NCBI RefSeq assembly: GCF_053078305.1
Contig: NZ_CP166879.1
DNA length: 64,000 nt
Strand: one strand, 5' to 3'
Under the pieces are notes generated by a model that was not told the DNA's origin, did not search any database, and worked only from the letters and a program-made list of their open reading frames with translations. The position numbers were made by a program, and so were the translations under genes. This document shows, in pieces, positions 13,433-16,576 of this stretch; position 1 is the stretch's first letter; each line of letters begins with the position of its first letter.

Positions 13433-14158
13433 TTAGCAAGAAAAAATTTACAATGAACAGAAAGGAAGGTAAATAACATTTAGCTCATTCAGGTAACACT
13501 TTGAACCTGTCCGACTTGATGAGAATCAGCCCCTTTCTACGAGGGACTCCTTACTGTATAATTTATAGTCCTGTCGAAGAGGTAAAATCTTTCAACCGGA
13601 TATCTCCATAAACAGCATTCCAGTAAATCAAGCAAGAGTGAACAGGAGACTGGTGCTGTTTATTACGGTATGCTTGTCCGATGTGGTGGAAAATAAAAAT
13701 GGGCGACTGACCAGATATGGGAGTCTCCGGTCAGTCATTCGCTTGTAGATGCAGGACATAAGCGAACCAAGGCCCACTGCTTCTGCGCAAAAGCAAGGGG
13801 GAGTTTACCCTGGTAGATTGAGTTTCGCGTCACTGACCAGTCAGAGCTTCAGACTCATCTTACACCACTAACCCCCTTACCACTCCTGAATCTTCCCTCG
13901 GCAACAGCCAAGACAGTATCGTACTGTTCACCACCATCTTTTCCCGTGAATGACAGTAAGTGCAAAGCCCCAATATAAATCAGTACTTCCGATGACAGAC
14001 AGTGAAGGCGTAAGGTGAAATATGCACGTAAGGCAGTATGACTTTCCGTGAGACAGATGCTGTCCAACGTGGGATATTTAATGCGGGTTAACATCGTTGT
14101 CAGAGCCGCATGGGTGAGCTGTTGCTACCCCCCTGGAATTTCCACCACGGAGGCCAGC

Positions 14159-15245
14159 ATGAACAACAATAACATGTTGTACGTCGAATTAGATGTTCAC
14201 AAAGAATCGATTACTGTCTCCTATGCTATCAATTCAGAACCTGTTGAACTGATGGGTAAAATTAGCACATCACCTACTGACATTCATAATCTTTATCAAC
14301 GTATCAGGTCAAAGTCATCGCAGGTCAGTATCGTTTATAAAGCGGGACCCTGTGGTTATGGACTTTATCGTCGGCTGGTGAAATCCGGTTTTGACTGCAT
14401 GGTCTGCGCCCCCTCACTTATCCCGAAAAAACCGGGGGAGCGGGGTAAAACCGACACCGTGATGCCATCAGACTTGTGCGTTCACTGCGTGCAGGAGATC
14501 TTTCTGCTGTCTACGTATCCGGCGTTGAAGATGAGGCATTCCGGGATTTGGCCCGGGCATGGGCATCTGCCCGCGATGATTTACGGCATGCAAGGCAACG
14601 TCTGAAATCGTTTCTTCTGGTTCATGGGGTCCATTATGTCGGGCGAGCAGATTGGGGCCCTGCACACCGACACTGGCTCAGCAAATACTCATTCGAAAGT
14701 CCCTGGCGACAATTAGCTTTTGACGAACACCGTTGTACAATAGAAGACCGGCAGGCACAATGTGAACGGCTGGAATCCGCCCGAAGGAGGCCGTTACCGA
14801 ATGGAGGCTGTATCCGGTAGTAGAGGCGCAGCAAGCCATGCGAGGGATTCAGTTTATTACTGCGGTTGGATTAATTTCTGAACTGGGTGATCTGACCCGT
14901 TTTGAACATCCACGACAACTGATGTCATGGTTTGGTATCACGCCATCAGAATATTCATCGGGTGGAAGCAGACATCAGGGCAGCATTACCAAAGCCGGAA
15001 ACAGCTATGCCAGAAAGCTATTGGTTGAGGCAGCGTGGAGTTACCGGCATCCGACACGCATCAGTCCGGCAATACAAAAAATCAGGAAAATTTACCCCGC
15101 CCCGTCATTGACAGAGCATGGGATGCTCAACTCAGGCTTTGCAAGAGGTCTCGAAAACTTCAGGCCAAAGGAAAGAATGTCAATATTACAATTGTCGCTG
15201 TCGCACGTGAGCAGGTGGTTTTATCTGGGATATGGGGCGGGATAG
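14159..15245 (+). pseudogene. IS110-family transposase pseudogene (at least two frameshifts)
   Basis: Transposase-like translation is split over three frames (ORFs 14048..14605, 14476..14820, 14838..15245) with consecutive segments MLYVELDVHKESITV..., ...AVYVSGVEDEAFRDLARAWA..., ...FITAVGLISELGDLTRFEHPRQLMSWFGITPSEYSSGG... Confidence 0.7.
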
Positions 15246-15368
15246 CCACGTTTGTCGCACAATAACCACAATGTCACAAATAAAGAATGAGGATAACCAG
15301 TTCCCTGAAGGTGACGTAGCTCAGAACAAGAGTAACTCATGTTAGCTGTCTGGCGATGGCTGAAGTGG

Positions 15369-15638
15369 TCAACAAAAACTGGCCACCGAGTTAGAGTTTT
15401 TCCAGTATCGATTTTCCGATTCGTTTGGGGATAACCCACTGTTATATTCGTGCGGTCTTAGTGCGCTGTAATATCCAACGATATCGTCCGTTATGGAGTG
15501 AGCTGCCTCGCTGAAGCTTACGTAACCCACCACCGGCATCCATTCGTTCTTCAGACTCCTGAAGAAGCGTTCCATTGAGCTGTTATCCCAGCATTTTCCG
15601 CGCCGGCTCATACTCTGCCTGATCTGGTATCGACACAA
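15369..15638 (-). pseudogene. IS3-family transposase C-terminal fragment
   Basis: 89-aa ORF with integrase-core end motifs ([18 protein letters not shown]...[16 protein letters not shown]); no N-terminal part present. Confidence 0.55.
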
Positions 15639-15693
15639 TAACTGCCGGAACTGCCTGCTCGAATAATGACTGCCTTGGACGCCCTTCTAAGAG

Positions 15694-16371
15694 TCAAGAC
15701 GTTATCGGGATGCAGTTAACATGCCTGTTTTGATTTCGTAGTAATGTATAAACTTCGCGTGAGATATAGCGCTTCAGACAGCGTATTGCTTCCATTTTTG
15801 TATGTCCTTCGGCTACTCGCCTGGAGACATATTCCTTTGTTTTATCGTCAGTTTGTAAACATCCTATAGTGATGATGTAAAGTGCACTATTTGCAACACG
15901 CTCCCCACCCCGATTAAGTCGGTAATGGTTCGTTTTTCCAGAAGATAGGGGAAACTGGCTGACACCGCACAACGCCGCAAAACCTGATTCGGTTCTTAAC
16001 CGTTAGGGATTGTCTCCGGCAGAGATCAACAACTGCAAAGCGCTTTCGTATCCAACAGCATTACGTTTAATCAGTTCAGGTGCCAGTTCATCAACAATTG
16101 CCGCAATCATGACATCCAAGTTGGTGATTTCATCATGAAACTCGAAATAGCGTCGAACAAGGGATTTCAATGTAATGCGATAAACGTTGGTAACATTACT
16201 GTATTCACTGGCATCAGGCCTCCAGGATCCCAGAGTCCTGATAAGTTGCATATGTGTCATATTTCTGAGTTGTTCGAGTAATTCATCCGGTGCAGAGATA
16301 ATATAGGAATGGATAATCTGGAGAGCGCCTCTGCGGGCTGATATTGCGGTTTTGCGGCAAATTTTTAGCAC
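15694..16371 (-). pseudogene. Second transposase remnant in two fragments (IS110-family-like C-terminus)
   Basis: ORFs 16003..16371 and 15694..15972; the latter ends ...ANSALYIITIGCLQTDDKTKEYVSRRVAEGHTKMEAIRCLKRYISREVY, a pattern typical of IS110-family C-termini; broken frame. Confidence 0.45.
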
Positions 16372-16576
16372 CCGCTACTACGCCAAATACCTGAAGTAGA
16401 AATGGATGTGTCACGAACGGTACAATATTGGGCCGTTGGTGGAGATATAAGTGGATAACTTTTCATCCGTCGTTGACAGGATGCGTTAGCAGCACACATC
16501 CGGCTCTGCGCGGGGAATAGCCGGAAACGGCTATCCCTACCACAATAGCTAACTTTGCAATAATCCCCTTTTGAGC

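Follow-up and report, generated by a model that had tools for sequence, protein, structure and literature searches.

What does the DNA between the ireA iron-receptor gene and the LacI-PTS sugar-transport operon of an E. coli island consist of, and how did these two loci come to adjoin? We analyzed a window of 64,000 nucleotides (the whole stretch taken from contig NZ_CP166879.1 of RefSeq assembly GCF_053078305.1), in which four dead insertion sequence (IS) remnants, partly nested, were identified between the two loci at positions 14027-16478. The initial annotation had placed decayed elements at 13500-16575 and named three of them. An IS110-family gene, an IS3-family fragment and a second transposase remnant were all recovered close to where it had put them, with very strong statistics, whereas a fourth remnant, a 70-bp relic of IS100 at 16409-16478, had been overlooked. 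The left part of the proposed span, 13500-14026, is ireA upstream DNA and not IS. The possibility that a further IS remnant is hidden there was rejected, since the segment gave no family match and consists of DNA conserved upstream of ireA. The stretch is very probably a non-functional scar, produced by successive insertions into or beside one another and by subsequent deletions, that welds the ireA cassette to the LacI-PTS module of a mosaic island.

Remnants of four insertion sequences

The ireA upstream (promoter) region (13393-14026, minus strand) forms the right edge of the ireA cassette and is 84% identical to ExPEC ireA loci up to position 14024. It terminates in ...AAATATGCA, the left flank of an ISSso6-like element (14027-15360, plus strand), and the uninterrupted site of this insertion is visible in ExPEC. 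ISSso6 belongs to the IS110 family and was first named in Shigella sonnei. The element in the window probably had an IS1111-type layout and is 95.5% identical to intact ISSso6 over 1,344 bp (window 14021-15364). Its left end is intact (CGTAAGGCAG...); the corresponding ends of three intact copies can be aligned from CGTAAGG onward. Before it stands TATGC, a motif that also occurs in front of two of the three intact ISSso6 copies examined, and a subterminal inverted repeat (TATGACTTTCCGTG) is located at 14037-14050. At the right end the last ~205 bp are gone, including the right subterminal repeat (CACGGAAAGTCATA in intact ISSso6) and most of the downstream non-coding region, of which 100 of ~270 bp are left; the truncation is seen against four ISSso6 copies (three intact, one frameshifted), the intact ones running ~205 bp past the equivalent of window position 15364. 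The boundary to the neighboring IS911 fragment is ambiguous by 4 nt (15361-15364).

The transposase pseudogene of the ISSso6-like element (14159-15283, plus strand) differs from intact ISSso6 by 1-nt deletions after 14454, 14782, 15081, and 15216, an extra G at 15234, and a CAA-to-TAA stop at 15263-15265. The initial annotation had noted at least two frameshifts; the gene has five single-base indels and a premature stop, and as it stands is split into at least four frames. After frameshift correction, the product scored 232 bits against NF033542, the profile of IS110 family RNA-guided transposases (cut-off 140), 30.6 bits against PF01548 (cut-off 29), and 80.8 bits against PF02371 (9.5e-23). 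It thus contains both the DEDD (RuvC-like) N-terminal domain and the C-terminal domain typical of the IS110 family; Pfam searches with the raw open reading frames missed the former, which was seen only after correction. The dN/dS ratio relative to ISSso6 is 0.60 (from only 34 substitutions), which suggests relaxed constraint on the gene. Programmed frameshifting is ruled out by the five scattered indels, the nonsense codon and the missing end, and it is not known to be a feature of the IS110 family. A sister lineage shows a further rearrangement within the ISSso6-like element, where a junction to IS66 is found at 14979.

Next to the ISSso6-like element lies the 3' terminal fragment of an IS911-type element of the IS3 family (15361-15677, minus strand), comprising the last 317 bp. 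Preserved are the right inverted repeat (TGAAGTGGTCAACAAAAACTGGCCACC), with its outer end at 15361, and the final ~102 codons of orfB. The reading of an IS3-family C-terminal fragment was confirmed by a match to positions 283-368 of 369 in the NF033516 profile, 96.5-96.8% identity to IS911, and a PF13683 (rve_3) match at 4e-11. The fragment belongs to the IS3 family by its 5'-TG-ended terminal inverted repeat (TGAAGTGGTCAAC... from 15361) and its orfB with a DDE integrase core. The fragment has no orfA, -1 frameshift site, complete DDE triad or left inverted repeat, and no sequence from upstream of the codon for the second D survives beside it.

The third remnant is the 3' 698 bp of an ISEc21-like element of the IS110 family (15678-16375, minus strand), aligning to ISEc21 at 88% nucleotide identity with no indels. 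It keeps codons ~132-358 and the short right end. The initial annotation had described it as lying in two pieces, which is correct and is caused by one in-frame TAA codon at 16003-16005, with no frameshift. The element has lost the left end, the upstream non-coding guide-RNA region and, with the 5' 395 nt of the gene, the N-terminal catalytic third; since similarity to ISEc21 stops at codon ~132, no upstream guide (seek/bridge) RNA region was found in the remnant. The product covers positions 126-341 of 343 in NF033542 (E = 5e-24), at a score of 85 bits that falls under the whole-protein cut-off as the protein is truncated, and scores 34.8 bits against PF02371, which together identify an IS110-type transposase. 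Judged by these features, the remnant is descended from the IS110 family and is no working member of it. As nucleotide identity is only 88%, with a dS of 0.38 and a dN/dS of 0.17 relative to ISEc21, it represents a sister element and not a decayed copy of ISEc21.

The old deletion junction at 16375/16376 is followed by the start of the LacI-module flank (16376-16408), which ends in one copy of GGATG (16404-16408). Inserted here is the overlooked fourth remnant, a miniature relic of IS100 (IS21 family; plus strand), recognized when the sequence was aligned to IS100 right ends and to the two ends of an intact IS100. It joins the initial 19 nt of the left end (TGTCACGAACGGTACAATA), at a CAATA microhomology, to the final ~55 nt of the right end (...GTTGACA). 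Its termini (TGTCA...TGACA) match both ends of intact IS100 and the 5-bp target GGATG is duplicated on either side, while istA and istB are both deleted. The right GGATG copy (16479-16483) opens the 3' flank (16479-16576) of the LacI-family regulator gene (16577-17608, minus strand). A dispersed ~60-bp repeat at 16423-16484 was considered as REP- or MITE-like and rejected, as it is the right end of IS100. The relic is an example of what gene-based annotation pipelines miss.

Defects and mobility of the remnants

The entire stretch was matched in one piece, at 99.3-99.7% identity, in 16 complete E. coli genomes, and these bear directly on whether the frameshifts and stops could be sequencing or assembly errors in otherwise intact transposase genes. 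Two of the five indels adjoin short G runs (15216/15217 and 15234), and two 1-nt insertions, one within an A run, occur in the window but not in its closest relatives. The other three indels of the ISSso6-like gene, however, lie outside homopolymers, and the defects recur in independent genomes. Strain S19-141 carries the same indels, showing no indel relative to the window within the transposase coding sequence and repairing none of them, and RefSeq lists the same three pseudogenes at identical coordinates in all five genomes inspected, from four countries (Switzerland, USA, China (yak), and Japan), with the labels "frameshifted", "internal stop", and "incomplete". Correcting the frames would not restore the ~205 bp missing from the right end of the ISSso6-like element, and large truncations affect the other elements. 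There is hardly any chance left that the genes are intact, and the error reading, which the initial annotation had named as the result that would overturn it, is already effectively refuted.

Its view that none of the elements is intact held for every one of them, each having lost one end or more, or the greater part of its transposase gene. An uninterrupted transposase gene together with both ends, as expected of an active IS, was found in none of the four. The IS100 relic keeps both termini, but is devoid of genes and has its left end reduced to 19 nt. On these grounds none of the four remnants is predicted to move, because none has a full transposase gene and an end is missing from three of them.

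Immobile remnants could still serve as an outward promoter for ireA or the LacI gene, or provide a residual guide RNA or end used in trans by intact ISSso6 or ISEc21. The surviving left end of the ISSso6-like element with its subterminal repeat, the 100 bp of downstream non-coding region and the IS66 junction in the sister lineage are what such a function could build on. Against it, the guide region of the ISEc21-like element is wholly deleted, the ISSso6-like element is without its right end and most of its non-coding region, and its transposase gene is directed away from ireA, which retains 634 bp of its own conserved upstream DNA. An Rfam scan of 12000-18000 (E <= 1) returned only a chance match to a eukaryotic lncRNA model and no known structured RNA. 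No sign of an effect on the adjacent genes was noticed, and we consider a retained function very unlikely.

Junctions and order of events

The IS911 fragment is broken at the codon for the DDE triad's second D, and the right end of the ISEc21-like element starts there. Uninterrupted IS911 reads ...CCCTG|ATCGCTGTG at the homologous point, and the breakpoint coincides exactly with CACAGCGAT^CAGGG in this sequence. This motif in an IS3 transposase gene is the published target of ISEc21, a seekRNA-guided element of the IS110 family (Siddiquee et al. 2024, PMC11187229). The right flank in the window reads CAAGG, with one mismatch to the consensus CAGGG; the left flank is deleted, and on the preserved side the arrangement is that of an element inserted into an IS3-family orfB at the ISEc21 target, with no duplication of that target. 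Strain Ec15103 has this IS3|ISEc21 junction around an intact ISEc21 in an IS3-family element, colinear with the window junction, and the junction recurs in 526 genomes. With its boundary falling precisely on the ISEc21 target, the IS911 fragment is best read as the leftover flank of an RNA-guided insertion and not as an independently decayed element.

These boundaries also bear on the possibility that three or four elements with no relation to one another arrived separately at a permissive intergenic site and decayed where they stood, with no causal link. IS debris does build up in mosaic islands, and the IS100 relic, with its own target duplication, looks like an independent event. The breakpoints are nevertheless non-random, the IS911 fragment starting at its exact outer end and stopping at the exact ISEc21 target; the recurrence of the IS3|ISEc21 junction in the 526 genomes and around an intact ISEc21, and the fact that the ISEc21-like remnant moves with the LacI module, likewise make independent landing highly improbable. 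Thus "graveyard", the term used initially, fits in that the elements are dead, but the ISSso6-like, IS911, and ISEc21-like remnants form a nested series and not a set of independent decays.

The two modules have separate distributions. The ireA upstream region occurs in 198 genomes and the LacI-PTS operon in ~1,350, with left neighbors other than here, while the ireA/LacI-PTS junction of the window is found in only 16-19. This agrees with the original view of the stretch as a junction between island modules, as the two occur apart elsewhere. The ireA cassette (11201-14024) is the sole part of the 25-kb ExPEC ireA locus found in the window. As a test of a simple insertion model, ExPEC sequence beyond the ireA upstream region (from the inovirus Gp2-type gene onward) was sought elsewhere in the window; none was detected, and only 11201-14024 is common to both.

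On the other side, the deletion junction between the ISEc21-like remnant and the LacI module (16375/16376) is identical in FORC_069, LTC201, and 55989, and was found in 937 complete genomes. In these genomes, which are without ireA, the remnant travels with the LacI module. Between lineages the remnant has diverged by about 6-18% per 100 bp. As the junction is common to 937 genomes, the LacI module's truncated ISEc21-like edge is old; this, together with a divergence of 6-10%, upholds the initial description of old elements for this remnant, and the edge is a stable marker in these genomes. The IS100 relic is absent from more than 900 genomes having the same surrounding flank.

Taken together, the sequence shows the following arrangement. 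An ISSso6-like element lies 634 bp upstream of ireA, its left end intact behind TATGC. It is cut 100 bp past the transposase stop codon, where the cut meets the intact outer end of an IS911-type element. With the left half of IS911, the right end of ISSso6 and the original right flank lost, insertion of IS911 and an IS911-mediated adjacent deletion are indistinguishable. IS911 is in turn cut at the second-D codon, the RNA-guided target at which the ISEc21-like right end starts. The ISEc21-like element has lost its 5' part (guide-RNA region, left end and catalytic N-terminus) and is fused to DNA downstream of the LacI gene. IS100 inserted later, 33 bp further on, duplicating GGATG before losing its interior. 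The order thus appears to be ISSso6-like, IS911, ISEc21-like; the deletion joining the ISEc21-like remnant to the LacI module seems to be ancient, the IS100 event recent and lineage-specific, and the ISSso6-like gene, once disabled, probably drifted as a pseudogene.

Homologous recombination between IS copies elsewhere could yield the same arrangement without insertions in situ. In such a history, dispersed copies of IS911 or the ISEc21-like element, one beside ireA and the ISSso6-like element and the other at the LacI-PTS edge, would have recombined, with no insertion and deletion in place. The ISEc21-like remnant accompanies the LacI module in many backgrounds, sequences of the IS911 and ISEc21 types occur in thousands of places, and identity to FORC_069 is uneven along the remnant (82 to 95% per 100 bp). 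These values come from small windows, however, and fit neutral drift given a dS of 0.048 in the adjacent lacI-family gene, and no clear recombination breakpoint was resolved. We regard recombination as unlikely, though it deserves weight; it would alter the history only, not the identity of the sequences.

Relative to the preferred history of nested insertion and deletion, a further step can be proposed tentatively, and is open to considerable doubt: the ISEc21-like remnant might derive from an unnamed ISEc21 sister that was active until truncated and used the same guide-RNA target in the IS3-family catalytic codon. If true, "IS-killing" by RNA-guided IS110 elements would be old and recurrent in E. 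coli, and would also have set the left edge of a sugar-utilization module now found in the 937 genomes. In a weaker variant, the ISSso6-like left end may be recognized in trans by intact ISSso6, driving further rearrangement at the junction.

Comparison with known elements

The locus is an ordinary, already annotated scar joining two gene modules, with nothing new in kind, and its importance is modest only. The joining of the ireA cassette and the LacI-PTS module at IS debris helps to reconstruct the assembly of this STEC island and to type its variants. In addition, the locus preserves, as a natural fossil, the kind of insertion published for ISEc21-type elements, which are guided by RNA into the catalytic codon of an IS3-family transposase.

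Compared with intact ISSso6, the window copy has the same left end and subterminal repeat, and its corrected transposase is identical at 349 of 376 residues, but it is dead, given its five indels, premature stop and lost right end. The likeness to IS911 covers the final 313-317 bp, where the right inverted repeat and the orfB C-terminus lie; about a quarter of the element remains, and most of orfB is missing, as are orfA, the frameshift site, and the left inverted repeat. The IS100 relic shares both termini (TGTCACGAACGG... and ...CGTCGTTGACA) and the 5-bp target duplication with its parent, and retains neither istA nor istB and hardly anything of the left terminal region. The ISEc21-like element resembles ISEc21 in gene order, in its short right end and in its insertion point in an IS3-family orfB, and differs in being a sister element with its 5' part deleted and one nonsense codon.

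Distribution of the cluster and reality of the transposase defects

A full-length match to 13400-16700 was found in 16 complete E. coli chromosomes (99.3-99.7% identity), mostly from Shiga-toxin-producing isolates obtained from humans, food and one yak. In one of the loci, that of strain S19-141, RefSeq lists a YadA-like adhesin, ireA and an 'IS110 family transposase, frameshifted', followed by an 'integrase core domain-containing protein, missing N-terminus' and a 'transposase, internal stop, missing N-terminus', and then by a LacI-family regulator and PTS IIA/IIB/IIC. Since all three remnants described in the initial annotation are annotated in S19-141, they are real and were already on record. 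The window differs from S19-141 at 11 positions in 3.3 kb, with no indel in coding sequence, and the coordinates and flags of the pseudogenes (759-1865, 1968-2276 and 2293-2973, counted within the 3,299-bp match) are identical in five genomes from four countries. The transposase defects are thus genuine, and sequencing error as their source is excluded. Two private 1-nt insertions relative to S19-141 were observed, an additional A at 13441 (in a run of A residues upstream of ireA) and an additional T at 15347 within the ISSso6-like non-coding region; the match in all 16 near-identical genomes is 3,299 bp, two bases shorter than the 3,301 bp of the window. These insertions may represent real variants or errors in the reads and have no bearing on the conclusions.

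The ireA upstream region is present in 198 genomes and the LacI-PTS module in 1,349 (complete in 935), while the ireA/ISSso6-like junction was found in 19 genomes and the entire arrangement in 16. Because these distributions are separate, the cluster is a junction of otherwise independent modules, as had been proposed. In three strains, everything to the right of 14979 is replaced by an IS66-family element and unrelated DNA.

The ISSso6-like element and its left boundary

The ISSso6-like element (14027-15360, plus strand) shares 95.5% identity with intact copies of ISSso6 over 14021-15364. Pairwise alignment with ISSso6 placed 1-nt deletions after 14454, 14782, 15081 and 15216 and an additional G at 15234 in the coding sequence, which begins with ATG at 14159, and frame-corrected translation revealed a CAA to TAA change at 15263-15265. 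The corrected protein is identical to the ISSso6 transposase at 349 of 376 residues and matches PF01548, PF02371 and the IS110 family RNA-guided transposase profile NF033542 (232 bits, cut-off 140 bits). The dN/dS of 0.60 relative to ISSso6, from only 34 substitutions, is compatible with drift as a pseudogene. At its left end the element is colinear with three intact copies from CGTAAGGCAG and contains TATGACTTTCCGTG, the inverted partner of which, CACGGAAAGTCATA, lies close to the right end of the intact copies. As these copies extend ~205 bp past the point where the window copy stops, the latter no longer has the right end or most of the non-coding DNA 3' of the gene. The IS1111-type layout, as described in PMC11187229, combines subterminal repeats with non-coding DNA downstream of the gene. 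The right-end non-coding region is tandemly duplicated in intact ISSso6 copies (L002, 2830-3200; L009, 2830-3280), by ~105 bp in one copy and ~205 bp in another, and every duplicate terminates in CATATCAGCG, similar to the element's own left-flank motif; this may point to partial re-insertion by self-targeting.

Between the ireA start and the element lie 634 bp that match the sequence upstream of ireA in ~177 ExPEC/APEC genomes at 84% identity, and this homology stops at 14024-14026, the exact left end of the element. At the same point, ExPEC strain ZJ3920 runs on into an inovirus Gp2-type gene; of its 25-kb ireA locus, the window shares only 11201-14024. The left flank terminates in TATGC(A). 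Of three intact ISSso6 copies examined, two are likewise preceded by TATGC and one by TATCA. We infer from these boundaries that the element is probably a genuine site-specific insertion that later lost its original right flank.

In 11201-14024, ireA behaves as a 2.8-kb cassette with 92% identity to ZJ3920, where it is bordered by an IS256 pseudogene and inovirus Gp2-type DNA; in the window it is flanked by the IS cluster and a YadA-like adhesin module. Within the DNA upstream of ireA, a 104-bp segment (13691-13794), with a 96% match to a single unannotated site in NCTC9112, holds an inverted repeat with an 8-bp stem, GACTGACC...GGTCAGTC.

Nested IS911 and ISEc21-like remnants and the IS100 relic

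The IS911 fragment (15361-15677, minus strand; 96.5-96.8% identity to IS911 over 310-318 bp) starts with the outer end of the right inverted repeat (TGAAGTGGTCAAC...) and codes for the final ~102 residues of orfB, covering positions 283-368 of the 369 in profile NF033516. Since IS911 has an intact end here, where the ISSso6-like element has lost its own, the boundary between them may reflect either insertion of IS911 into the non-coding region of the ISSso6-like element or an adjacent deletion, mediated by IS911, that ended there. On the other side, ordinary IS911 copies match only up to 15677. The native target of ISEc21 is CACAGCGATCAGGG (Siddiquee et al., PMC11187229), and uninterrupted IS911 contains exactly this 14-mer; the window fragment breaks between ...GAT and CAGGG, the latter being CAAGG in the window. 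In Ec15103, an intact ISEc21 is flanked by two IS3-family fragments with the same junction, and 526 genomes carry an IS3-family/ISEc21-type junction across this point. The junction is thus the known ISEc21 target, and the IS3-family fragment is a flank left by a guided insertion, which inactivated IS911.

The ISEc21-like element (15678-16375, minus strand) aligns with ISEc21 over 682 bases at 88% identity and without indels. It retains codons ~132-358 and has lost the left end, the non-coding DNA upstream of the gene and the catalytic N-terminus. A single in-frame TAA (16003-16005) explains the 'two pieces' in which this transposase had initially been described. A dS of 0.38 and a dN/dS of 0.17 relative to ISEc21 indicate that the element is not a decayed copy of ISEc21 but a sister whose evolution was constrained. 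Its right edge at 16375/16376 (...AGCACCCGC/TACTACGCC...) is shared by FORC_069, LTC201 and 55989, which lack ireA and have as left neighbour an IS630 fragment or an ECs1377-family gene adjoining cdiBA. A 231-nt ISEc21-like/LacI junction probe, built with the IS100 relic removed, matched 937 genomes, virtually every genome with a complete LacI-PTS module (935). Because other junction forms keep only 555 bp or ~77 bp of the remnant, the window holds its least-deleted version. Between the window and FORC_069, the remnant differs by 5-18% per 100 bp and the lacI-family gene by 2% (dS 0.048); the deletion joining ISEc21-like and LacI sequences probably predates the spread of the LacI-PTS module in E. 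coli.

Relative to FORC_069 and LTC201, the window carries a 75-bp insertion at the site of an internally deleted 70-bp relic of IS100 (IS21 family; 16409-16478), unannotated in RefSeq and missed initially. Both termini are kept, flanked by a 5-bp GGATG target duplication (16404-16408 and 16479-16483). The first 19 nt correspond to the left end of IS100, TGTCACGAACGGTGCAATA, and the rightmost ~55 nt to its right end, which immediately follows istB in three copies of IS100, intact or partial; the two parts join at a common CAATA. The relic therefore represents an IS100 insertion followed by internal deletion. It is limited to ~15 genomes, matching the junction probe at ≥99% in two pieces, and is absent from >900 genomes with the same surrounding DNA.

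IS debris in the island and relation to known elements

A further pseudogene of the IS3 family (frameshifted, internal stop, missing N-terminus) is predicted at ~4585-5410, an approximate position carried over from the S19-141 locus (L015, 17311-18136). It lies between the OmpA/YadA-like module and the type I secretion/giant adhesin module, and IS debris therefore marks further module junctions of the island. The 3' portion of the YadA-like adhesin module (10650-11142) recurs with 92-96% identity on large plasmids carried by related STEC strains, which suggests plasmid-chromosome exchange. Unlike the dead cluster, an apparently intact IS66-family element (20231-22742, minus strand), with tnpA (22231-22656), tnpB (21884-22234) and a 530-aa tnpC (20261-21853), looks like an insertion that is specific to the strain and possibly recent. 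Relative to S19-141, it is inserted within a small residual 'transposase' gene downstream of PTS IIC, and ~9 bp of S19-141 sequence match at both edges, suggesting a target duplication.

Rfam found no structured RNA in the IS cluster. None of the remnants keeps the requirements for movement, in agreement with the earlier view of them as inactive. The cluster is an ordinary IS scar, correctly recognized as such in the initial annotation. All its components belong to described families, nested in a manner that obeys published target rules.
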